Source: Ginglymostoma cirratum (taxonomy: Eukaryota). From it: DNA of 64,000 nucleotides. The translations under genes and the position numbers were made by a program. Below, piece by piece: positions 5,330-58,154 of this stretch. How positions within the stretch are numbered: the first letter of the stretch is position 1; every line of letters begins with the position of its first letter. The stretch covers positions 9,986,331-10,050,330 of the forward strand of contig JAHRHZ010000047.1 in assembly GCA_024137785.1 (NCBI GenBank). Reading direction: 5' to 3'. The notes under the pieces were generated by a model. That model saw nothing but the letters and a program-made list of their open reading frames with translations, ran no database searches and was not told where the DNA came from.

Positions 5330-5640
5330 GAAGTTCATTGATTAGAGGGTATTGCCTTTCAATGAGACAATAAACTAAAGACTGCCTGCTCCCTTAGGTG
5401 GATTTGAAGAAGGCATGGCCTTTTCTGAAGAATAGCAATGGAGTTAACCCCAGTCAATTAACATCAATTAAAAAAACAAAATATCTGGTCGTATTACTGT
5501 TTGTGAGAATTTACTTTGCATGAATTGGCAGCTATACTTCCCACATTGTGTACATTACACAAATAACTACACTTCAGGCATTTATTTTATTCACTGTAAA
5601 GTGCTTTGGAACATCCTAACCATTTAAAGTGCCCCATAAC
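5330..5640 (+). mobile_element. Old Deu-domain (SacSINE1/AmnSINE-like) SINE remnant
   Basis: Degenerate match to the copies at 33335-33750 and 39880-40297 (…actacacttca…gtaaagtgctttgg…). Confidence 0.5.
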
Positions 5641-5938
5641 CACTAGCCTGTCCTTCTTTCTTTCTTATATGCTCAAAGCTAAAAGGAAATAATGAACCAG
5701 AAACCAACATCCAAATGCACAAGAAGTGAAAATTATGGCTGGATTTAACTGTGAATAGACCAAAACTATAAAAATAGTGATTTGATTGTACAGAACGTGA
5801 GTATAACAGAAAAAAGAAGACTTTGTCAAATATTTTCATCTTGTACACATTAGGACCTTTAGCAAGAATGCCAAACTAAAGGAAAACAATATTTTACACT
5901 TCTGTGGTTGGTTTGCTTGCCGAGCTGGTTCGTTAGTT

Positions 5939-5980
5939 TGCAGACGTTTCATTACCCTGCTGGGTAACATCATCAGTGCA
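5939..5980 (-). ncRNA. Minimal type I hammerhead ribozyme motif
   Basis: Minus strand reads TGCA-CTGATGA-T-GTTACCC-AGCA-GGGTAAT-GAAACGTC-TGCA. Confidence 0.75.
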
Positions 5981-6155
5981 GCCTCCGCTGAATTGCTGTT
6001 GTGTTTTCCCGCCTGGTAGTTAAACTCTGGGGTCTGTTGGATTTGATTATCTCGTTTCCGGTTTTCCTTCGCAAACCGGAAATGAGGTAATCAAATCCAA
6101 CGGACCCCAGAGTTTACATAACAAGCAGGAAAACACACAGTGTTTCACCGGAGGC

Positions 6156-6197
6156 TGCACTGATGATGTTACCCAATAGGGTAATGAAACGTCTGCA
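6156..6197 (+). ncRNA. Minimal type I hammerhead ribozyme motif
   Basis: TGCA-CTGATGA-T-GTTACCC-AATA-GGGTAAT-GAAACGTC-TGCA. Predicted cleavage after C6193. Confidence 0.75.
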
Positions 6198-8326
6198 AAC
6201 TAACGAACCAGCTCGGAGAGGGAACCCACCACAACATCCACAACCTGAGCTAAAAATCTACTCAAGAACCTTAGAATATTTTACACCACATAAGAAGAGA
6301 GGCTGATTGGTTAGCAAGTGGACTCTGACTGGTATGTCAGTGATGAATACAAAATGAAAAGCTTCAACAAAATCCACATTTTTCAGCTATACTGAAGAAA
6401 AAAAATCAATTCAGTCGCAGAACAATAGATGGGTCAGTAGAATAGAAAAGGATATTGCAAGAGGTAAGGTTTTATTATTTCAGTTTTCAATTGGAGAAAG
6501 AAACAAGATGTGGAACAGACACTGTATGCTGTTGGAAACCAGGAGAAGAAAGGAATTCTGAAAACTAATGAATTGATGGAGGGAATGACTAGGAGAGAGC
6601 AGGTTTGGGGGTGGAGTGACAACATTCTGTTGTGGCTCCCTCATAAGAATGGGTGGAATAGTGGAGGTGAGAATTGATGGATTTGGCTCTCCTGTCTTAT
6701 ATCTGAACAGCTACTCATACTGATTGTAATTAACTCTATTTTAATTTAAAAATCCTTTGAAAAATTTCCATCAAAACACAGTAAAGTAATTTGTGGAAGA
6801 TCATAGAGTACAATTGCTATGAAGTACTAACTCCCATCAATAGACTACCTGACATTCAATTAAGAATATGCAAACATCCAACATACCATTAGACTATCCT
6901 GAACTTTGCAAAACCACCAAAGTTCCTTTCTCAACCAGCAACTTACAGATCTTTTCATCTAAAGTGTTAAGCTTGATAATATGACCCAATTTAACATTTG
7001 TTACAATTCGCTCAATAAGAATCTTGTAGTTGAATTCCACTTCCACTATGCTTTACTTTTCTTTGAAGCAAGGCTTTTGTACTGTGTGCTAGAAAGATCA
7101 TAGTTCAATTAATTCAACTGCCAATAGCAATTGGCATCTGTTCGAGGAGATTGCAGTGTAGATTTTCTTGCTCAAGGAATGTCTCCTCTCAGTCAGGTTA
7201 ATATTTAATACTTGCAGGAACCTAACCATGTGTTTAGCAGGACCTGGCACAGAACGTATGTAACAAACCAATAACTATCACCTCATCAAACTGAGCTCAA
7301 TTTGCCCTAAATGCCGGCTGCAAATGACTGTCCAACTCGAATGTACAGCCCTGTGAACAACATGTCTGCTTAAATCCTTGTGTGTGACAAATTATGAACA
7401 TGGCAATCTTATCCATTTCCTGACAAATGAAGACATCATGAGCTTTGTTCTAGAACATCACTTTCTGCTTGAAGTTCAGGCTTACAGAATTAGCATGTTA
7501 TTTTTATAAATTAGCAACCTCACTCCAAGACCCCTGAGGGAAATGGAAAACACCACACTGATCAGGTTGGGGATGGGGCGGGGGCACTTCTCTAAGGTTG
7601 CAGCTGGGACGCATTATTGTGTCAATTTGACTCTGCACAATACCTGTTGTGTACTTGGCATTGGATTATTTAAGTGGGATAATGCGGGAAGGGTCTTAAT
7701 CTGTAGTTGACCAATAACTGGCACCACTTGGTGCAAAGTACAGATTTCTGAAATGGACAAGTCCCAGCATTAACATTCCTCACCATAATTAGAATAAAGA
7801 GACACAATTTTATTTTTATAAACCTTATTGAAATGGGATGTTCAAAAAAAAAATCAAAAGAGTAGGAATGACTTTGTTCTCTCCGTCACTAACATCTCAG
7901 TAATTTGTAACAGTTCATTTGCATGTTCGTTGAATACTAAGTATCAGTCATTTGTGATGAGATTTCATTAAAACTAACACCCTCTATAGCTCTCCATCCA
8001 CAGACTGCATTATACTGGATGCCAGAGCCATTTGAGGCTTTGTAACAGCGTCAGTGAAGGACACTAAGGACTCCAGCTCCAAACCAATTTTCTTAAATCT
8101 CTTGGAAACCACTGCAAATATCAAATATGTTTCAACTATGACAGCTTTTGTAAATATCTTTGAACACTCAAAGCAAAATGGACTGCAGGCTAAGCAATGA
8201 ATACTTTTAATGGCAAATGTATCTTTCTTTTATAGTCAACTGTTTCTTAGAAAAAATAATATCTAACAATAGAAAAATTTAATAGAAGTGAGAAGTCTGA
8301 CCTTCAGACTTTCTTAAAATTCCATG

Positions 8327-12000: not shown

Positions 12001-12138
12001 AAGGTAATGTTATATACATTAACAACTCAGATGTGAATGTAGAATCAGTAGGTTTGCAGACAACAAAAAACATTGGTGATGTTGTTGACAGTGGGGAGGA
12101 TGATCTTAGGCTACAAACTGAAATTAATCAGTTGGTAA

Positions 12139-12521
12139 GAGGGGTAAAAGGTACTGCAGATGCTGGAGAATCCGAGATAACAAGGCGTGGGGCTGGATGA
12201 ACACAGCAGGTCAAGCAGCATCATAGGAGCAGGAAAACTTGACGTTTCAGGCCTAGACCCTTGCCGTTTTCCTGTCCTCTGGGACCCTCCTTGACTCTAG
12301 TGATTCCTGAAAGATCACTGCCAATGCCTTTGCAATCTCCTCAGCTATCGCCTTCAGAACTCTGGAGTGTAGTCTATCCAATCCGAGTGCTTTATCTACC
12401 TTCAAACCTTTCAGCTTCCCCATTTTCTGATGAAGGGTCTAGGCCCGAAATGTCAAGTTTTCCTGCTCCTATGATGCTGCTTGGCCTGCTGTGTTCATCC
12501 AGCCCCACGCCTTGTTATCTC
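12139..12521. mobile_element. Fold-back Penelope-like insertion in CR1 with 15-bp TSD
   Basis: TSD TTAATCAGTTGGTAA at 12124-12138 and 12522-12536. Inverted pLTR copies at both ends. Hammerhead-like core CTGATGA..GAAATGTC at 12427-12454. Confidence 0.85.
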
Positions 12522-13599
12522 TTAATCAGTTGGTAAATTGGGCAGAGCAATGGCAGATAGAATTTAATCCTCATAAGTGCAGGGTGATGCATTTTGAGAG
12601 GTCTTATAAGGCAAGGATATTCACAACGTTAAGGGAATACAGGTCCTTATTAAGTAAAGGTACCTGGGGAGTACTGAGGAACAATGAGGCCTTGATGTAC
12701 TAGTCCATAGACCCCTGAACGTGTCAACAAAGGCAGACAGGGTGGTGAAGTAGGCATGTGGCAAGCTTATCTTCATTATCCAGGATGTACAATATAGGAC
12801 CAAGGAAGTCTTGTCGCAACTTTATGAAACATTGTTTAGGGCTGCAGATGGAATACTGTGAAGAGTTCTGGTTGCCACACAACAGAAGTATGTGATTGCA
12901 CTGGAGTGGGTGCAGAGGAGATTCATTGTGATGTTGCCTGGGATGAAAAGTCTCAGTTACGAGGAAAAACGGGATAGGCTGGGATTCTTTTCCTTGAAGC
13001 AGAGGAGACTGAGGGGGAATCTAATTGAGGTATACAAAATTGAGAGGTGTGGACAGAGTAGATTGTGAGATTCTTTTCCCTATGGCAGACCAGAGAGCAT
13101 AAGTTTAAGGTGAGGGATAAAGTGTTTAGAGAAAGTGCAAAGAATTTTTCTTTCCATTCAGAGGCTACTATGTATATGAAACATACCGCCTGAGAGGATG
13201 GTGAGGCAAATACTCTCACAAACTTTAAGAAGCATCTGGATGAGTGCTTAAAATATCAGGATAAAGTAGGCTATAGACAGGTAAACAGGATTAATATGGA
13301 TTGATGTTTGCTGGGTAGCATAGATATGGTAGGCCAAAGGGCCTGTTCCTATCCTGTATGATTCTATAACACATTTTCATTCATCAGATGTGTGTATTGC
13401 TGCCTCAGCAACAATTTGTTGCCCAGGAGATGGCAGGTTAGTTAGTGTTCAAGCTCCCAGCCCGTCCACTCCCCTTCGGCTGACCAGCCATATCCTTTTT
13501 TTAAATTATTATTGTTATTATTTTTTAATGTCACCTTTTGTGTGAAACTCATCATTTCTTCTTTCTGAAGCTGAGGTGCAGCAGTTTCGGTCGGACAGC

Positions 13600-13880
13600 A
13601 TCAGTTCCTCGGCAGGTCCCCGTCCTCAGCGGTTTCGACAAGGCCTGGTCCTCAGCTGTTTCGACAAGGCCTGGTCCTCAGCGATTTCGACAAGGCCCAG
13701 TCCTCAGCGGTTACAACAGGGCCTTGGTCCTCAGTGGTTTTGACAGTGCCCCGCCCCTGTTCTTGGCAGTTTCAAAAGGACCTGGTCCTTGTCAGTTGGA
13801 CAGGACCCAGTCCCCGGAAGCTGGAGAAGGTCTCAGTTCTCGGCAGTGGGGCAGTCCCTGGTCTTTGGCACTGGCCAGTT
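13600..13880 (+). repeat. 26-bp minisatellite (GTCCTCAGCGGTTTCGACAAGGCCTG)
   Basis: Units start at 13622, 13648, 13674, 13700 and 13727, with degenerate copies on either side. Confidence 0.85.
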
Positions 13881-33750: not shown

Positions 33751-34751
33751 AAAGAAAAAAATAATGCACAAGATAAAGAAAATAAGATATATCAACATCT
33801 CACAACCAACAAAATTTTCTGCCTTAACACCCAACTTGAACTTTCATGAACTGATCTGCTTCAAGCAATTTATACAATTTTAACTTAACATCGAATGCCT
33901 TCAAGGTGCTGTAGATTCTGGAGTGCTGGTTCTACTTAGATTTACTTAGAGGCTAATTGAACACATCTATTTTCACAAAGTGCATTAAGCAGTCAAGAAA
34001 GCATTGTTCGCGAATTTATTTAATTCTGGCTCCAGTCTCCACTCCTCCTCCTCTGCTAAATTTACCAGGTCCTTGCTATGGCAGTCCCACAAGGGTTTAA
34101 TGCGGAGTTTATTACCTCAATCAACTGATTAATCTCTATCAGGGAACTGATATTTTGCATATTACTGCGTTACCATACTTCCAATGAGCGGCTCAAAATA
34201 AAAACTTGTATTAATATGCCACCTTAAAAAGTCTCAATCTCCAGATGTCCCAAAGAACTTTACAGCCAGATTTTGACAAGTTATCAATGTTGTAATATAG
34301 GAAACATGGCTGTCACTTTTCACACAGTAAGTTCCCAAAAACAGAAATGTGATAATGATCTGATAAACTACATTAAAATCCTGCTGAAGGCAATGCAGAG
34401 TAAATGTTGCGTGGTATGTGTGGTATGCATGTAAAAATGAGATCTTCAAACCAGACCAGTAAGAGTTAATCGTTAAAAAATAATTAAACATGGCAATAAG
34501 CAAGTGAAGCAAAGTGGACAAGGACATGAAAAACAGACCTGGTGTAAAATAAAACAGTCTGCTTAGACTAGGAAATAATTACATAACCTCGATTATTTGT
34601 GGGAACCATTCTTTTACGTAGTTAACACAGAGCCACCTGGAAATGTTTTCTGCACAACAGAACATCTGCAAAAGTACTAAAAATACTAGGAAATGGTGAA
34701 ATAGCACATAACCAGAATAGTATTAATATCAGGGTTTCGGTCCCATTTGTA

Positions 34752-35935
34752 GGACATTCCCATCGCACTTGGGTCTGTGAGACCGTGACATTCCCATCGC
34801 ACTGGGGTCTGTGTGACCAGGACATTCCCATCGCACTGGGGTCTGTGTGACCGGGACATTCCCAACGCACTGGGGTCTNNNNNNNNNNTGGGACATTCCC
34901 AACGCACTGGGGTCTGTGTGACCGGGACATTCCCATCGCACTGGGGTCTGTGTGACCGGGATATTCCCAACGCACTGGGGTCTGTGTGACNNNNNNNNNN
35001 NNNNNNNNNNNNNNNNNNNNNNNNNNNNNNNNNNNNNNNNNNNNNNNNNNNNNNNNNNNNNNNNNNNNNNNNNNNNNNNNNNNNNNNNNNCGCACTGGGG
35101 TCTGTGTGACCGGGACATTCCCAACGCACTGGGGTCTGTGTGACCGGGACATTCCCATCGCACTGGGGTCTGTGTGACCGGGATATTCCCAACGCACTGG
35201 GGTCTGTGTGACCGGGACATTCCCATCGCACTGGGGTCTGTGTGACTGGGACATTCCCATCGCACTGGGGTCTGTGTGACCGGGATATTCCCAACGCACT
35301 GGGGTCTGTGTGACTGGGACATTCCCATCGCACTGGGGTCTGTGTGACTGGGACATTCCCAACGCACTGGGGTCTGTGTGACCGGGACATTCCCATCGCA
35401 CTGGGGTCTGTGTGACCGGGATATTCCCAACGCACTGGGGTCTGTGTGACCGGGATATTCCCAACGCACTGGGGTCTATGTGGCTGGGACATTCCCATCG
35501 CACTGGGGTCTGTGTGACTGGGACATTCCCCATCGAACTGGCATCTGTGTGGCTGGGACATTCCCATCGCACTGGGGTCTGTGTGACCGGGACATTCCCA
35601 TCGCACTGGGGTTCGTGAGACCAGAACTTTCCCCATTAGACTAGGGCCCGTGAGACCTGGACATTCTCCATTGGAGTGTGGTCTGTCAGTCTGGAACTTT
35701 CTCCATCGGACTAGGCTCCGTGCGACCAGGACATTCCAATTGGACTGGGGTCTGTGAACCTGGAACTTTCCCCATCAGACAAGGGCTGTGAGACAAGGAC
35801 ATTCCCATTAGACTGGTGTCTAATGTGAAGCTGGAACTTTCCCCATCGGACTAGGGTTGGTGAGACCGGGACATTTCCAGTGGACTGGAATCTGTGAGAC
35901 CGAAACGTTCACCATCCGACCAGGGTTGTGAACCA
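34752..35935. repeat. 34-bp minisatellite (GGGACATTCCCATCGCACTGGGGTCTGTGTGACC)n
   Basis: Exact 34-bp periodicity (e.g. 35112, 35146, 35180 ... 35520), two internal N gaps, and degenerate units at 35625-35935. Confidence 0.97.
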
Positions 35936-42640: not shown

Positions 42641-43156
42641 ACTGATTTGGCTTTTTATTTTGTTGCAAATTCCTGCTGAAGCCAATGCCAAAGGGAAGGG
42701 GAGGAATAAATAGGTAAACAAAATAAGCAACTGAAACGAGGCATGAAGAACAAGATGGCTTCGTGAAGTAAACATTAATCAAGATAGAATAGAAATGAAT
42801 CTTAGATGAATGAGAAATAAGAAAGGCAAAGCAGCACAACAGGATTTAAAGTAGAAGGTTAGACTCAGCAAATTCCAAGAGGAAGAAAACAATACGGGTG
42901 ATTAAGCTTATACAGAAAAGGAAAATGAAGAGAGTTGGAATAAGGGAGGACAGTCATATAAATGTGCTCCAAGGAGGGAGCTGTGGATTGGGATTTGTTT
43001 GAGGGGTTGGTGGGGTCAAGGGGGACAGGAATTTACAGCATGGCTTCTTTCCAGCTGAACTAACTCTGAGATGTTACTCTAAGCAGTACTCGTGGAAGTG
43101 AGTTGACTCAGAAACAAACCATACTACCACTTGATCCAGACAGATGGGCAGTCAAG

Positions 43157-43962
43157 GAAGAGCAAATTACTGCAGATGCTGGAATCTGAACTGAAAACAA
43201 AAAGTGCTGGAGATCACAGCAGGTCAGGCAGCATTCATGGTAGTATCTCCACCCTGTTCACCAGCTAAGGGCCTAAACAGTCTTCCCAGGTGAAGCACTG
43301 TTTCACCTGTACCTTCTCCAATCTTGTGTATTATATCCACTGCACCCAATGTGTCCTACTCTACATTGGAGAAACCAAGCGTAGACTGGGTGACCGCTTT
43401 GCAGAACACCTTTGGTTTGTGCACAAGCATGACCCTGACCTTCCCATAGCCGGTCATCTTAACACAGCGTCCTACTCACATACCCACATGCCTGTCCTTG
43501 GCATGCTGCAGTGCTCCAGTGAATCACAGTGCAAACTGGAGGAACAACATCTCACCTTCAGACTAGGCACTTTACAACCTTCTGGACTTAATATTGGACT
43601 TAATGTTGAACACATCTTCAAATTGTGAACCCATTCCTTCCTTTTCTTTTAGCTTTGCTTGTTATATGTTCTGTCACCCACTCTCCCCTCCCCTCACCCC
43701 AGAAGGACACCCTGTTCTTTCCAGTCTGGTCGTTAGACACACCATTGTTCTGCCATTCTCACATTCCGATCACTTAATCTGAACTATTAACATCTTTGCT
43801 TCCCCAACACTCCACAAACCCCACCCCCCTCTATTGCATAAACGCTGGCCCCTCATACTTCATGTCAGCTCTGTTGAAAAGTCATCTGGACTTGAAACGT
43901 TAGCTTGTTTTCTCCCCATGGATACTGTCTGACCCGCTGCGATCTCCAGCACTTTTTGTTGC
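43157..43962 (+). mobile_element. 5'-truncated Penelope-like retroelement: GIY-YIG endonuclease, pLTR and inverted 5' pLTR
   Basis: ORF 43290-43628 FTCTFSNLVYYIHCTQCVLLYIGETKRRLGDRFAEH. 43160-43240 is an inverted copy of the 3' end. Imperfect 16-bp TSD at 43141-43156 and 43963-43978. Confidence 0.9.
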
Positions 43963-45479
43963 CAGATCTGCAGTCAAGATGTGGATGTTTGATTAGGGAG
44001 CCTCACTGAATAATGGGAGCTGAGGGGGAATAAACCTCTCATCATAGACTTTTATTTTATTGACTCAGATTTTTCTATGTTACAATAGTGACTACACCAA
44101 AAACATATTTTGTCAGCTTTGATGCATTTGGGGACATCCTTTTCTAAGTACAGCTGTTATGTGTCAGCTGGGAAAGGAAACATAAAGAAATTTTCCCTGT
44201 TAATAAGTCACGCCGCACTTGAAGTTAAACTCCAGCGTGATGCTGGAAGTTAAACTAGACTAGACGAGACTAAGTGATCTCTCACAACCTATGAATTAGA
44301 ATACCCTTTCCTATATACATATATCATGTAACTCTGAGTATGATGAGCTCTATCATTGTATTTAAGACTATGATCTCCTCCAAGAGTGGGAAAATAAACA
44401 ATGTAGCAGTCTGTGCCTTACATTAAAAACTTTGGAATAATTTTATTAATAAAGAAAGCAGTGGAGGAAGCAGCACAAGAGATGACAGTAGGTTACAGAA
44501 CATAGCCTTTTTCACAGTGAATGCAGAAAAAAATGGAAGCAATGCTTTTATAATGCTGTTATTAACACCCAACACATAATATCATCATCATGTGATGACT
44601 TCCAATGTTCCTGCCTGTGTGTTGTTAGCTTCAGCACAACCAATGAACTGAGGGCACAATCCCTGAAATATAAATTTCCATTCTTTGGAGATTGACTGGC
44701 GACAAAAGAAATGGAAAGTATATCTTATAGAATCAGACAAATCTGCCAGTCAAGCATCAATAAAATTGCCAGATTACCTGTAAAACTGGTGATTAGCTGC
44801 TGGGGAGTGTCAGCTATGTCCATTTATGGTGTCAAACCAAAGTCTATTAGACACTTGACTCAAATTCCTTTCCACTGAATGTACTGTTCCCCAGATAAAA
44901 GCACATCATTGTGCCAAATGGTAATCATTTTCTCTTACATATACTATATTTAAATATTTGCCCTTAACACAACATTAAACAAAAAAAAAAGAGATTGGAC
45001 AACGAGGAAGTTCTGTTTAATGGACTAAAGATACACAAGAAAAAAAAACTGCAGATCTTCAAATAGTTACAATTAAAAAGTGTTAGAAACATTTAGTGAG
45101 TCAGCCCAGGAATCAGTTATAGAATGGTGCAGCGTAGTACGTGGGCACATGGCACTTTGCAAGAGCTGTTCACTAATGCTCTTCTCCCATAGTCCTGTCA
45201 TTTTAACCCCCACCGGCAATGTGTTTCTCCAATGCCCCATTTGAGGCTACTGGAACTTTTTCCACCATCCTCAGTGCATTCTAGACCACATATCTGCGCA
45301 AAACCTGGCTTTGGACTCTTTTGCCAAACATATCAAACCCTTTCGTCACTGTGGAGACAAGTGACAACTTAACATTTCAAGCCCTTCGTCCGTGCTAAAA
45401 GATGTTGCTGTAAATTCACACTCCATTCTTTCTTCCTGAATGCTGACAGAAGGTTATACCTGAAACAAAAGTTTGCTAC

Positions 45480-48822: not shown

Positions 48823-49125
48823 TCTCAAACACCAAGCTGGGTATCAGGTATTTCTCCAGCTCCTCATTTAGTCCATCTTATCCATAGTTTATTTTATTGC
48901 AACCTCTCCAGTCTGTGGTTCCTATTGTTTAATTTGTAGGCCATGTGGCTTCTTCTCGAGTTTCTTACATTTCCATGCATCTCCCACTCCCCTATTCTAA
49001 CTCAGCTTTCTAAATCTTTCAAATAAGTTTCTGTGTTGTTTTATAGAATGAGATGGGTGAAACCTCTATGCTGCTCTCATCCTGTCCAGTTGTGTTCAGG
49101 TACAGGCCACCAGGATTATTGCTTG

Positions 49126-49303
49126 CAACAAAAACAAAGTCGCTGGAAAAGCTTGTCTGGCAGCGTCTGAGGAAGGGTCACCGGACCCGAAACATTAACT
49201 CTGTTTTTTAACTTCACAGATGCTGCCAGACCTGCTGAGCTTTTCCAGCAACTTTGTTTTTGTTCCTGATTTACAGCATCCGCAGTTCTTTCGGTTTTCA
49301 TTT
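49126..49303 (+). mobile_element. Short fold-back Penelope-like insertion with 14-bp TSD
   Basis: TSD AGGATTATTGCTTG at 49112-49125 and 49304-49317. Core CTGAGGA-A-GGGTC-ACCG-GACCC-GAAACATT at 49167-49196. Confidence 0.85.
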
Positions 49304-50220
49304 AGGATTATTGCTTGGATGTGTTAGTACCTGATTTCTGAAGGTTTCATCATTGCTACCCCTAATTTCTCAGCTGTAGGTCTGATCAATGCTCAGGCAC
49401 AAGCCTTAGGAGCGCTCCCACCTTTCGGTCGGAAGGTTGTGAATTCCAGCCTTGTTCAAGACATGAGCAAAACATTGATGATGATACCTCACTACAATAC
49501 TGGTAGAATATAGCACTGCTGGAGGGGCCCTTCTCTCAGTTTGAGATGTCAAAATGACTGCCCTCTTTGGTGGATGTAATGGTCCCGTTATTTTGAATTA
49601 TATTTATCCTGCAATTAATATCACCCAAACAAATTTTCTCATTATTATTATTTTTGTGAAATATAGTTATGTTTAGCTATTGCATTTCCTGTATCAGTTT
49701 ACAAGTAGTTAATTAAGTAAAGCATTATGAAATGTTCTGCTTTTCTTAATTCAACATGTGCAGGCATGTTATGATACATGCCTTAGATAGGTGGGACTTG
49801 ACTGTGGATCATCTGGCCCAGGGCTGGGGTCACTACCATTATACTGCAAGAGCCCTCCCTGAAATGTTCTGAGATTGAAAAAGGCAACTGTAGATACATG
49901 TAAGTCTTTCGTTGAGAAAAGGCACCATTGGTGACCGACAGTGAAGGCTTCACTGAGTCTAGCATCTTTGTGAAACTTGCCCATTCATAGTCAAGTTTAA
50001 TCTGTCCCCATCTGACATTGGTATATTTGTGCTTCCTGCAGAAGTCAGGGATTTGGTGAGGCGGCTCTAGCTGTGTTTTCAGGAGCACTGAGACCAATTG
50101 TAACAACACGATTGCCAACGAGCCAGAGGTCAGCTGCATTAGCAGAGACAAGCGATCATGATTGTGTCTCTGTCCATGCTGTTTTGTTCAATGTGTAACA
50201 TTCCTCTCATTTACTTACAG

Positions 50221-50387
50221 GCCCTAAGGACTGGGATACCTCCTCAGCACAATATCGATGTAAACAACTATGTGCATTTCCAGTTTTAAGATTCACATGA
50301 TCACCTGCCTATCACAGAAGAACTCCCACTGTGATTGATCCCATCAAACAAATATCCTATTACATATTGCACATCATAGCATTTAGG
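50221..50387 (+). other. Probable 5' UTR portion of the first coding exon, with short uORFs
   Basis: Strong acceptor ttcctctcatttacttacAG ends at 50220. ATG-TAA at 50258-50263 and a 22-codon uORF at 50270-50338. Confidence 0.55.
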
Positions 50388-50939
50388 ATGAATTTCAGTA
50401 CTGAAGATACTATCAATCCTTTCCTGAAACAGACTCTTCTCTATGACTATAATGGTACGTGCGTGGGCACTTCCTTGGGGCATGCTTGCAACAAAAGCAG
50501 TGCCCATCACCTTCAGCTGCCAGTCTTCACCAGTGCAGCGAAAGTTAGAGTCGGGATCACTATTCTTGTTTTCACTATTTCTGCTGTCTGTAACCTTGCT
50601 GTGCTGTGGACGACCACTCAGAATCGCAAGAGGAAATCCCACATAAGAATTTTGATCTTGAATCTAGCTGCTGCGGACCTCCTGGTAACGTTCATCGTGA
50701 TGCCTCTGGATGCCAGCTGGAACATCACAGTTCAGTGGCAGGCTGGAGACATTGCCTGTCGGCTACTGATGTTCCTAAAACTCGTAGCTATGTACTCCTG
50801 CGCTTTTGTCACTGTGGTGATTAGTGTAGACCGACAATCTGCCATTCTAAATCCTCTGGGCATCAGTGAAGCCAAAAGGAAGAATAAAATCATGTTGACA
50901 GTAGCTTGGATTTTGAGTGTCATCTTGTCCGTTCCACAG
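50388..50939 (+). CDS. GNRHR: GnRH receptor (type II, C-tailed class A GPCR), coding exon 1: N-terminus to TM4
   Basis: ATG at 50388 (MNFSTED). Encodes QLPVFTSAAKVRV, NLAAADLLVTFIVMPLDASWNITVQW, CRLLMFLKL and DRQSAILNPL. Ends SVPQ|GTGAGA, a phase-0 donor at the conserved GnRHR intron position. The symbol is family level; the paralog is not resolved. Confidence 0.96.
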
Positions 50940-52114
50940 GTGAGAGCTGCTTAGGAATTGGGAGTGCAAATTGCTTAACATTTGGTGCTCTTGTTTCTTT
51001 TTTGTGGTTGAATTGAGGAATAGCCTTTGTACAAATCCAACTAATATTCTAAAAAAATTGAATGGATGGTGTCTAAAGGCACCATAGCCTCTGTAGAGAC
51101 CTTCTATTACAACTGGACTGCATAACAAACCACTCTCATGGTTCTCCACGGTCAGGAACTCTTGAGTCAGTTCTTCGGCCACTCAACAGTAATGGTCCTC
51201 ATATACGTAAAGGAAGTGACGGTGAGATTTCCCATTGGGAACACCATATCACTAGCCTGAGGGGTTAGTGGAGTCTGGGGCTTGTTCCTGTCATTGTGCC
51301 TTTCGGTCAGGAACTGTCCTGAGAATTCAGCTCAAGTCTAAGAATCTCAAATGTAAGATGTATTCAATATTGACAGTCCAGTGTTTCAGACAGATCAACT
51401 GAAGAAAAATCTCTTTGTTTTAAAGTACACTGTCTTCATGAACGAAGAGTTTAACTTAGAAACAACTGGGGCTGAGTGACAGAGAGAAGGCTCGAGAGCT
51501 GATATATGATCTTATAACTGTTCCTCACATTTAGGCTATGAACTTGTCTTAAACATCTTTTCTCTTCAATGCTGTGCACCTCAAAGTGAGTGATTTTGGT
51601 GTTGGAGACTGGAACATGCTTTTCTCTGGGGACTCAAAGACAATGGCAACTGCTTTAATGGCAAGGTCTGGTTAAGCACAGATTATGTGCAAAATAAAAT
51701 TCCATCTACATCGTACACAAAACAAGGTCAAGAGCAACAAAAGTTTGATGTAACCATGAGCTCCTTTTATGACCACTGTTGCAATACAGTGACATTCCTC
51801 GATTTTCTACGTGTTATCCTGTGTCTTCCTTTAGGAGATTAAAAAAACTCAATTCTGAGTTGACTCATGTCAAACTACGTAGGTGCATGGAAGAAAATTT
51901 CCTTTCATCATCTTAGGCTGGATTAAGATGTCGTAGAAATGTGAGGAATAGGACTGAGTACTTTCCTGCCCCATCCCCTTATTTTAATATCCCAGAAATA
52001 AAGGGTTAAATTCTGCCTTCTGTCCTCTGACGGGACAATTTTACGTGAAATTTTGCCATGCTTTCTCTTAAAGTCAAATCCTCAAATTAACCATGCAATT
52101 TTTTTTAAAAAAAT

Positions 52115-52415: not shown

Positions 52416-53038
52416 TCCGAACAGACCACTCAGATCCTTAAGGGACTTCTTTAAAAATAGTTTGTGGAGCATCATTAGAATTGCAGCTTAGATGGAAGAT
52501 TGAAGGAGTTTGTTCAGTTTGTAGACCCTGGGATACAACTAGTGAAAATAGGCTTCTTTCCAGTCACTAACTGAGATGGCTATCAATTCAGCCTAGTCTC
52601 TTGCTGGAGGTCAAACAGCAACTGATGTAGAATTCCAGATTGTAGCTATTTTACATCACCCTGTTCGACATGTTACAATATACATCCAAGGCAGGTGGGA
52701 CTTCAACCCATACCTTCTGGCCCAGTGTCACAAGGGAAAACAAGCTCTTTGGTATTTTCATTCAACCTGTTCAGCGATGTTATTAGACAGCTGTGGTGCA
52801 GGTGGCATTTGAACTGGGGTCTCCTGGCTCGGAGGTACGGACACTACCACTGCATCATAAGAAAACTCAAGATGGAACAGGTAGTTTTTCAATGAGTATT
52901 GATTTAAACACAGTAAGAAGTCCCTGTTTTTGGATCAAAAGAAACAAGTTGTGGAAGTTCACCATATTGGTGATAAAATAGAGAAAAAGGCTGAGATTAG
53001 AGCTTAGAGTTGAGCAAAGGACAAGTTATCAGATTCTG

Positions 53039-53601
53039 AGATAGTAGGAACTACAGATACTGGAGAATCTGAGATAACAAGGTGTGGAGCTGGATGAACA
53101 TAACAGGCCAAGCAGCATCAGAGGAGCAGGAAGGCTGACGTTTCGGGCCATTTCTGAAGAANNNNNNNNNNNNNNNNNNNNNNNNNNNNNNNNNNNNNNN
53201 NNNNNNNNNNNNNNNNNNNNNNNNNNNNNNNNNNNNNNNNNNNNNNNNNNNNNNNNNNNNNNNNNNNNNNNNNNNNNNNNNNNNNNNNNNNNNNNNNNNN
53301 NNNNNNNNNNNNNNNNNNNNNNNNNNNNNNNNNNNNNNNNNNNNNNNNNNNNNNNNNNNNNNNNNNNNNNNNNNNNNNNNNNNNNNNNNNNNNNNNNNNN
53401 NNNNNNNNNNNNNNNNNNNNNNNNNNNNNNNNNNNNNNNNNNNNNNNNNNNNNNNNNNNNNNNNNNNNNNNNNNNNNNNNNNNNNNNNNNNNNNNNNNNN
53501 NNNNNNNNNNNNNNNNNNNNNNNNNNNNNNNNNNNNNNNNNNNNNNNNNNNNNNNNNNNNNTGCTGCTTGGCCTGCTGTGTTCATTCAGCTCTACACCGT
53601 T
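53039..53601. mobile_element. Fold-back Penelope-like insertion spanning an N gap
   Basis: Left and right flanks of the gap are inverted copies. Candidate TSD TTATCAGATTCTG at 53026-53038 and 53602-53614. Confidence 0.75.
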
Positions 53602-53954
53602 TTATCAGATTCTGCTTTTTTTCCCCCACTCTTTATCCTACCCAGAAACATTTAGAAATGCCGTTTTTAAAAGCTTTCCCAGATAGGGGGACAGCATTTA
53701 AACTTTAAGGTATTACAAAAATCAAGCATTACTAGACTGAACTTGCACCTGTAAAATCCTATTTAATCAGTGAGAAAGGCTAAACAAATCAATGGAAAAT
53801 CACTTTCAGGAGTTGAGTTCAAACATCAGATTATTCTTTAAAATCTGTGCATAGTGATTTTACTGGGTCTGTCTATTCCTGACCATCACGATGAGAAAGT
53901 CATCTATTCTTCTGCTTTATTTTTCAAAATCTGCTCCATCTTTTAACCTGTTCT

Positions 53955-56742: not shown

Positions 56743-56947
56743 ATTGTCTTGTTTCACACTGTAAGTATTACCGAGCCTCAGAACTTCACACAGTGCTCCA
56801 CAATGGGGAGTTTCAAAGAACACTGGCAGGAGACCTCGTACAACATGTTCACTTTTGTTTTCCTGTTCCTTGTGCCACTTGTGATCATGATATTCTGCTA
56901 CACCCGAATCCTGGTGGAGATCTCAAAGAGGATGAACAAGGGAAATT
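56743..56947 (+). CDS. GNRHR: GnRH receptor coding exon 2: ECL2, TM5, start of ICL3
   Basis: Acceptor ttttttcttatAG ends at 56742. The 205-nt exon encodes IVLFHTVSITEPQNFTQCSTMGSFKEHWQETSYNMFTFVFLFLVPLVIMIFCYTRILVEISKRMNKGN. Phase-1 donor T|GTAAGT. Confidence 0.96.
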
Positions 56948-57627
56948 GTAAGTTGAATATTGATTGTTGCCTGTGTTTTCATCTTTCCTACATGGTCACT
57001 GTACTGAAATCCAAGATTTATCTCACAATCTCCTGCTGCACTCTTCTATCTTGGAATATCACAAACTTCAGACTTTTTGATTCTTCCCATGATTTATTAA
57101 TCTGTTGTCCAACAATTTTGATCTTGATCGTGTCCTGAATCAAAGGACTTCTTCCTTTGCCTTTATTTTTCAAAGGTTTTGTGCATTCATGCTGCTGTGT
57201 TGTGCTGAGTATCATTGACCGGGAAGGTGTAAGGTTCAGTCACAAGCTTATGATGATCTCAGAGTGTGGAGTAACTATAACAGACATATTTCCCTAGACT
57301 CGGAAGGGAGAAATAGACACTGGGTATTCCAACACCAATTGCTCTCAAGAATTTTTGGTGGTAAACTTTTCACATGTAGTTGTTGGATGACAGTAGGAAT
57401 AGACTTAGATGTAATGCTCTGGAAAGCCAAATAGTCCACAGTTATTCACTTCCCAGGCTCTTACGTGGAAAATGGTTGCTTCTTGAAAGCTTACCAACAC
57501 CTGTGGATTGCATGCCTGTCAGAAAGGAAGACAATTAGTATAAAAAAATTCCTCAAAGTGATTACTTATTTCTGTAAGTTTTTTGTAACCCTCATGAAGG
57601 CCTATTTTGTTTTGTGTCCTCTTCCAG

Positions 57628-58154
57628 TGTCCTCAAAAGATGTGCATTTAAGGCAATCGACAAATAACATACCAAAGGCACGCATGAAAACGTTAAAAAT
57701 GAGTATAATTATTGTAACCTCTTTCATAGTGTGCTGGACTCCATATTACCTTCTAGGACTTTGGTATTGGTTCTCGCCAGAAATGCTCTCGGAAGGAAAG
57801 GTCTCCCAAGCATTGAGCCACATACTCTTCATTTTTGGCCTCTTCAACACTGTTTTGGATCCCATCACCTATGGTCTCTTTACCATCCATTTCAGGAGAG
57901 GCTTGCAACATTGCTGCCATTCTGCTAAGATGGTATCCAATTCAGATCTCAATTCTACACTGACCAGATCGTTCAGGTGTTCTGCATCATCTCTTCGCCT
58001 CAAAAGGTTAACTGCACTTGCTCAAGAAGATCACAGATCAATGGCAGAGGATGACCGTCATAGTAAAGGCAGTTGCTACAGCAATGGTTATCTTGACATA
58101 TACAAAGATGATGCCAGGAAAAACATCAGTGCAAGTGCAGAAAATACTCTGTAG
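57628..58154 (+). CDS. GNRHR: GnRH receptor coding exon 3: ICL3, TM6, TM7 and cytoplasmic tail
   Basis: Acceptor tgtcctcttccAG ends at 57627 and the phase matches exon 2. Encodes NNIPKARMKTLKMS, CWTPYYLLGLWYWFSPEM and SHILFIFGLFNTVLDPITYGLF. Stop TAG at 58152-58154. Total CDS 1284 nt. Confidence 0.96.

Follow-up and report, generated by a model that had tools for sequence, protein, structure and literature searches.

A probable insertion stub of a Penelope-like retroelement with a minimal hammerhead motif in each arm in Ginglymostoma cirratum

Introduction

In insertions of Penelope-like elements (PLEs), an inverted, 5'-truncated copy adjoins the 5' end of the element, and a tail of 30–40 bp, often present at one end only, has been ascribed to endonuclease-mediated resolution (PMC8557442). 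Pen2a_Av is described as an inverted pseudo-LTR (pLTR) with a 31-bp tail, a 9-bp target-site duplication (TSD), and the first ORF codons inside the pLTR plus tail; the same report treats PLEs as known small-RNA targets and notes that insertion in trans can rely on pLTR sequences acting in cis (PMC3846280). Minimal hammerhead ribozymes are defined by a helix II of 7–8 bp, a helix I of 4–5 bp, an unpaired base between positions 9 and 10.1, and a palindromic stub; a G10.1–C11.1 pair is highly conserved and lies outside the search descriptor (PMC4209133). Single minimal hammerheads gave no cleavage in vitro and dimers gave little, and dual minimal hammerheads on opposite strands, 100–700 bp apart, are reported in Schistosoma (PMC4209133).

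For the Poseidon element of Anolis, the ORF starts at stem II, and the ribozyme cuts 26 bp past the start codon. Reverse transcription (RT) starts 111–118 bp into the ORF, with a second site one tail-length earlier, and the Poseidon protein cuts and extends both target strands and prefers AT-rich DNA. The Poseidon hammerhead cut only with the element's protein and was dispensable for insertion (PMC11167929). Retrozymes, by comparison, consist of at least two consecutive same-strand tandem units with a complete hammerhead in each (10.64898/2026.07.22.740005). Here, we compare with these systems a hairpin insertion found in a window of 64,000 nt of Ginglymostoma cirratum DNA, the whole stretch analyzed, to which all coordinates refer.

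Results

The insertion is bounded by two copies of a 12-bp TSD, AATATTTTACAC, at 5888–5899 and 6275–6286. Sequence comparison shows the copies to be identical at 12/12 positions, and they are the only two occurrences of this sequence in the 64-kb window. With 10 of 12 bases being A/T, the TSD marks an AT-rich target site. The 375 bp between the copies contain two arms, 5903–6064 and 6073–6233, on either side of an 8-nt hairpin loop (6065–6072); their alignment spans 161 columns (88% identical) and includes 19 mismatches and one 1-nt bulge. The minimum free energy (MFE) of the element is −267.5 kcal/mol (z −31), and none of 100 shuffled sequences was equally stable. An original prediction had described a 375-bp insertion with a perfect 12-bp TSD and a stem of about 160 bp, and both descriptions held. 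The hairpin is not symmetric: unlike those of a MITE-like hairpin family, the inverted repeats stop short of the right terminus and leave an unpaired tail of 40–41 nt (6234–6274) on the right side only.

Read as PLE sequence, the left part of the insertion begins with two to three junction bases (5900–5902) that join the TSD to an inverted, 5'-truncated, tail-less pLTR copy on the minus strand (5903–6073, loop included); contigs from related sharks align through its inner portion, 6026–6073. The paired part of the direct, 5'-truncated copy occupies 6073–6233 on the plus strand and continues into the one-sided tail on the same strand. Both copies are 5'-truncated inside the pLTR. By the arm alignment, they meet at an apex junction (6064–6073) where the truncation points lie 9 nt apart and one base, 6073, is shared.

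A motif scan for the hammerhead pattern returned two matches in the element, 6156–6197 on the plus strand in the direct copy and 5939–5980 on the minus strand in the inverted copy, and no matches in 100 shuffles. In the plus-strand motif, stem I is formed by 6156–6159 and 6194–6197, followed by the core at 6160–6166, an unpaired U6167, stem II (6168–6174 with 6179–6185), GAAA at 6186–6189, and an ACGU stub at 6188–6191, with a predicted cut after C6193. Consistent with the minimal type I hammerhead, the motifs contain the CUGANGA, GAAA, and NUH core elements, an unpaired base between 9 and 10.1, a 7-bp helix II, a 4-bp helix I, and a palindromic 15.2–16.2. The stem II loop is AATA in the direct arm and AGCA in the inverted one; these loops, the stub, and the cut position are all as originally proposed. 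The same proposal had called the ribozyme in each arm intact. The catalytic-core letters are indeed complete in both motifs, with one motif per strand, but the 10.1–11.1 pair (G6168·U6185 in the plus-strand motif) is G·U in both arms instead of G10.1–C11.1. On their letters, we filed both as motifs of the minimal type I hammerhead with one deviation, that is, as putative ribozymes. The covariance-model search suggested at the outset did not recover them: Rfam gave no matches over the 64 kb at gathering score, and no hammerhead family was among the 21 matches over 5850–6320 at E up to 10. Those 21 sub-gathering matches were mostly to microRNA hairpins and were dismissed as reflecting shape only.

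Folding predictions depend strongly on context. As 81-nt pieces, the hammerhead of either arm folds alone, with a stem II probability above 0.94. Within the whole element, also with 200 nt of flank, stems I and II have a pairing probability of 0.000 on both strands; in the folding model, imposing the ribozyme fold raises the energy by about 62 kcal/mol whichever strand is folded. Both hammerheads are thus predicted to be locked inside the hairpin duplex, in line with the proposal that the ribozyme would be held in long double-stranded RNA (dsRNA). That the antisense copy is transcribed before the sense copy in read-through, also proposed, is true on both strands because any head-to-head inversion gives such an order. 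Whichever strand is transcribed, the RNA carries one sense hammerhead, and none stand in same-strand tandem. In the predicted MFE structure of two strands (a dimer), the stems pair between molecules and the ACGU helix is not formed, a point on which nearest-neighbor folding cannot judge. A switch is unlikely because of the 62 kcal/mol gap, the single sense motif per transcript, and the need of minimal hammerheads for a partner or protein; the gap is too large for the switchable ribozyme cassette once suggested. If transcribed, the hairpin could in principle be a Dicer/ADAR substrate, as long RNA duplexes can be substrates of either enzyme.

The arms are most alike within the ribozyme: with loop II set aside, its 38 columns are free of mismatches, vs 17 mismatches in the 119 columns beyond the motif (P 0.004 when this region is chosen, 0.043 when the arms are scanned). 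The mismatch-free columns could reflect chance, partial gene conversion, or templates under constraint in the ribozyme. A CpG-decay signature between the arms was considered and dropped, as mismatches are not enriched at surviving CpGs (3/16 vs 16/145, P 0.41) in a test that sees only CpGs kept in one arm.

Contrary to its description as non-coding, the insertion contains an open frame. A reading-frame scan of the plus strand places an ATG at 6166, made by the A9-U-G10.1 of the hammerhead, from which 36 codons stay open to the end of the element and through the tail (6166–6273); the corresponding frame of the inverted arm is open for 23 codons. The 36-codon frame is likely the N-terminus of the ORF of the parent element. 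In a profile-free search of 1.84 billion protein representatives, two hits were retrieved. The first, whale-shark gene model P0001, carries at residues 154–183, at the end of the protein, a peptide 70% identical to the frame, which is probably a mis-predicted exon from the same repeat; P0001 has no Pfam match, and its N-terminal part is arrestin-like in appearance. The other, P0002, is a bacterial-type Cna_B repeat protein and was dismissed as a low-complexity chance match. Longer-protein searches for a full-length parent gave no hit at E 0.1, and a metagenome pattern scan gave 0 loci, both in collections poor in shark repeat sequence. Neither the protein nor the metagenome searches tied the element directly to an RT or GIY-YIG gene, which counts against the Penelope reading.

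Copy behavior was judged from short-read contigs assembled from public runs of related sharks rather than from Ginglymostoma cirratum itself; the best of these runs share a third of sampled sequence words. Across four DNA-type runs, 23,780 contigs aligned to 5400–6800. Over the element, summed depth climbed as high as several hundred thousand, vs about 12 on the flanks in organism A; this measure is not a copy number, but the element sequence is plainly a very abundant repeat in related sharks. Loose contig ends pile up at 5902 (106–109 contigs in each of three runs) and at 6273 (38–130 contigs in four runs); because they do, we regard these outer ends as fixed boundaries of the family.

The center of the hairpin behaves differently from its ends. 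Of the joints, 15 of 52 are listed, and of the between-letter rows, 12 of 24; among these, at least 13 different centers connect the left arm with either the right arm or the tail, starting at 5922, 5940, 5963, 5964, 5965, 5968, 5970, 5978, 5982, 5986, 5992, 6017, and 6018. This count omits joints within an arm and "opposite strands" joints, the latter of which are what a lone direct copy would give if its mapping spanned both arms. Wherever contig counts are given, each listed center is found in one contig per run, and in organism A the centers have depths of 10–19, with one at 28, near single-copy. Run X7 contains four joints at depth 33–249 against a flank depth of 5.3. These high-depth centers may be collapsed or multi-copy, which would weigh against seeing all of those other copies as one-off events. 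The deepest of them, in this run of organism B, joins 5940 to 6150 at depth 249 vs 5.3 on the flank and is possibly a multi-copy center or a collapsed repeat.

Checking for copies with the same apex junction, as the original prediction had recommended, gave varied centers in relatives, at least 13 among those listed, none of which matches this apex; differing junctions were the outcome that the prediction itself had set as refuting a replicating hairpin family. We aligned 466 contigs from two DNA-type and two guessed-RNA runs of relatives to 6026–6111. None bridges the apex (6064/6073), and the longest 32 of the 466 listed reach at most 48 nt (6026–6073). Loose ends at the apex indicate that the family continues upstream of both truncation points. 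In the two runs guessed to be RNA, family sequence is present with 0 contigs bridging the apex, which is evidence neither for nor against expression. Accordingly, a center shared across many copies, as a replicating hairpin family should have, was not found in these relatives. The apex of the probable organism A orthologue is also missed by the contigs, such that a single-copy junction can escape detection; a many-copy junction should be easier to see. The suggestion of a retrozyme-like replicating family is disfavored by the one ribozyme per strand and the many different centers in relatives. No second copy of the element was found in the 64-kb window. An apex acting as a transcription start was likewise rejected, because the TATA-like motif seen in the loose ends of the relatives sits only 14–23 nt upstream of the truncation points, closer than the usual TATA-to-start distance of 28–33 nt.

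Evidence on age comes from organism A, where a single-copy flank contig (5400–5917) enters the element by 18 nt; because this contig continues from flank into element, the insertion appears older than the split from organism A, and no empty orthologous site was seen. The flanks differ from organism A at 39/1,014 bases, and the arms differ from each other at 11.8% of columns. These values suggest that the insertion predates the split; the age read from the arm difference is a maximum if the two templates were not identical to begin with. Departures from the family majority occur at separate positions in the two arms. Near 5940 and 6039, the arms agree with each other and not with that majority, which suggests a common template or subfamily and later drift.

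Ten local inverted repeats were identified in the window, of which nine were tested for TSDs, a 38-bp palindrome being left out. Five of the nine (5903, 12174, 43188, 49127, and 53064) have a perfect TSD of 9–15 bp and extra sequence on one side only, and three have no convincing TSD; several of the inverted repeats contain hammerhead-like cores of other families. The one-tailed, TSD-flanked hairpin layout is routine in this window. Individual cases vary in form. At 2625–2822, a near-symmetric, tail-less hairpin of a different family (arms 2635–2723 and 2725–2813, 84%) carries a degraded hammerhead-like core and a 10-bp TSD with one mismatch. The inverted-arm insertion at 12124–12536 has a perfect 15-bp TSD, a 35-nt tail on the left, and arms 97% alike that are separated by about 160 nt of other sequence, with one hammerhead-like core whole and the other cut. 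At 43148–43978, an insertion with a 9-bp TSD and a short inverted arm includes an ORF piece (43269–43628), which gave no Pfam hit but resembles the C-terminus of a GIY-YIG endonuclease, as well as a hammerhead-like core at 43871. A short inverted-arm insertion with a 14-bp TSD and a 39-nt tail lies at 49112–49317, its arms apparently sharing 3 nt where they join, right at the start of the hammerhead core. The inverted arms at 53026–53614, with a 13-bp TSD, enclose a run of Ns, an instance of how hairpins of this kind interrupt the assembly. Elsewhere in the window, about 44 kb from the element, rhodopsin-family GPCR exons lie at 50301–50954, 56743–57138, and 57435–58154 (PF00001 in the first and last), which resemble those of a GnRH receptor. 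Tandem arrays of 34-bp and 26-bp repeats occupy 34620–35800 and 13600–13800; the 26-bp unit yielded hammerhead-core-like word pairs on the minus strand in a loose scan that were gone in a stricter one.

Beyond its internal features, the element resembles described PLE insertions closely. As in Pen2a_Av (PMC3846280) and Fig. 2 of PMC8557442, a head-to-head inverted, 5'-truncated copy is accompanied by a one-sided tail, a TSD of similar length, and first ORF codons in the pLTR plus tail. In contrast to Pen2a_Av, both copies here are cut within the pLTR, the ORF body is absent, the tail measures 40–41 rather than 31 nt, and the arms are nearly equal in length (PMC3846280). Compared by geometry alone, Poseidon PAc of Anolis carolinensis likewise has an ORF start at stem II and an AT-rich target (PMC11167929). 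The cut lies 25 nt from the start here and 26 in PAc, and the element ends fall at +108/109 and +68 of the ORF vs PAc RT starts at 111–118 and one tail-length earlier (PMC11167929). PAc was studied as an active full-length element, and the portions of PMC11167929 drawn on here do not describe short double-armed stubs.

With the minimal hammerheads of PMC4209133, the motifs share the core letters, the unpaired 9/10.1 base, a 7-bp helix II, a 4-bp helix I, and the stub, and the opposite-strand pair, about 180 bp apart, falls within the 100–700 bp given there; the difference is the G·U that replaces G–C at 10.1–11.1. The portions of its main text drawn on here do not discuss dsRNA locking (PMC4209133). 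Animal non-LTR retrozymes are, as here, non-coding, PLE-pLTR-derived, and equipped with a type I hammerhead, but they are same-strand tandem repeats with a ribozyme per unit, whereas this element is an inverted pair with one motif per strand and no tandem units (10.64898/2026.07.22.740005). Five of six features of EN+ PLE insertions are present: the inverted copy, the one-sided tail, the hammerhead, the AT-rich TSD, and an ORF start in the pLTR that stays open through the tail. The sixth is a parent element encoding a telomerase-like RT and a GIY-YIG endonuclease, and no full-length parent turned up in the collections searched. The proposed origin from a Penelope-like pLTR with a minimal hammerhead is thereby supported by tail, TSD, inverted copy, and ORF start, and the layout is one already known and ordinary for PLE insertions.

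Discussion

Taken together, the element is very probably an old, inactive, one-off insertion stub of an endonuclease-bearing Penelope-like retroelement, consisting of two head-to-head 5'-truncated pLTR copies whose hammerhead motifs are predicted to be locked. For the origin of the hairpin within this explanation, we moderately favor two-sided target-primed reverse transcription followed by end joining. At an AT-rich target, the PLE protein would nick the two strands at sites about 12 nt apart, and each free 3' end would prime reverse transcription on element RNA, one start being the far end of the tail (+108/109 of the ORF) and the other its near end (+68). Both cDNAs would stop early and be end-joined at a 1-nt overlap (6073), the ribozymes being carried along as part of the pLTR, after which the arms would diverge by 12%. 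Read-through RNA would then form a duplex of roughly 150 bp with a single sense ribozyme of the partner-needing type and no cutting, and would be at most one among many repeat-derived dsRNAs. The ends, their polarity, and the overlap are observed; priming on both strands we infer from PAc biochemistry and the fixed ends. The spacing of only 9 nt between the truncation points is unexpected under independent truncation and counts against this explanation, as do the mismatch-free ribozyme columns and the lack of mismatch enrichment at surviving CpGs.

The closely spaced arm ends are better accommodated by fold-back self-priming on the antisense template or first-strand cDNA, which would yield a near-symmetric palindrome from which endonuclease resolution removes the tail on one side. 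The loop has antisense-strand sequence, the polarity that fold-back requires, and the subfamily letters common to both arms near 5940 and 6039 are compatible with one template or subfamily. Palindromic PLE junctions are read as fold-back self-priming in the Discussion of PMC3846280, and resolution of the tail by an endonuclease accords with PMC8557442. Yet the primer here would be one base pair only (A6073 with T6064), most other centers in relatives are lopsided among the joints listed, and the hairpins at 12174, 43188, and 49127 in the window are lopsided as well, against the near-symmetric ones at 2635 and 5903. The tail-less end also sits at a fixed family boundary, as a second RT start site would place it. 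Fold-back thus strikes us as a doubtful but serious contender overall; it competes with the two-sided priming step only, where it seems somewhat unlikely, and leaves the PLE identity unchanged. Much less probable is a non-autonomous hairpin that replicates as a unit, MITE-like or retrozyme-like, mobilized in trans by a Penelope protein. Its own perfect TSD, the near-symmetric arms, the high depth of some other joints in run X7, and the ability of pLTR sequences to act in cis for trans insertion (PMC3846280) would suit such a unit. However, 0/466 contigs of relatives bridge the apex while at least 13 other centers occur among those listed, the window holds no further copy, and the family's putative TATA motif, situated immediately outside both truncation points, is missing from the element. 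Same-strand tandem ribozymes are likewise lacking, and read-through RNA would probably bury the protein-binding and RT-start region in duplex. We consider this reading very unlikely.

Still more improbable is a hairpin co-opted by the host for regulation, whether as a switchable ribozyme or as a Dicer/ADAR substrate that silences the family. On the plus strand, pairing does run uninterrupted for 44 and 40 bp, the arms agree better in the hammerhead region than elsewhere, each hammerhead folds alone, and PLEs are known small-RNA targets (PMC3846280). Set against these are an energy gap much too big for switching, 19 uncorrected stem mismatches, the G·U at 10.1–11.1, and a layout that recurs throughout the window, so that the element is not special. 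Moreover, each transcript has one sense minimal hammerhead, singles of this kind were uncleaved in vitro (PMC4209133), and the Anolis hammerhead required the protein of its element (PMC11167929). A related and very improbable possibility is that some Penelope head-to-head stubs, this one included, were spread or kept as units, with selection or conversion within the element keeping the hammerhead identical, and with the duplex as an off-state from which a Penelope protein or a truncated transcript gives release. Hints in this direction are the 0 mismatches in 38 ribozyme columns, the near-symmetric apex, and the high-depth centers in one relative's run.

Returning to the preferred reading of a one-off Penelope insertion stub, the single locus is of little consequence, as it preserves in fossil form an insertion pattern that is already known. 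Collectively, such stubs offer a natural archive of the unresolved insertion reaction of Penelope, and the outer ends of this one fall where the Poseidon protein starts RT in vitro (PMC11167929). A narrow literature search combining Penelope with "twin priming" returned no work on the subject by title. Tallied across the genome, arm lengths and the overlaps at junctions could discriminate between fold-back self-priming and two-sided priming. The stubs also indicate that screens of shark DNA for ribozymes and microRNA hairpins should count opposite-strand hammerhead pairs as repeat background; at this locus, hairpin shape alone gave sub-threshold microRNA matches.
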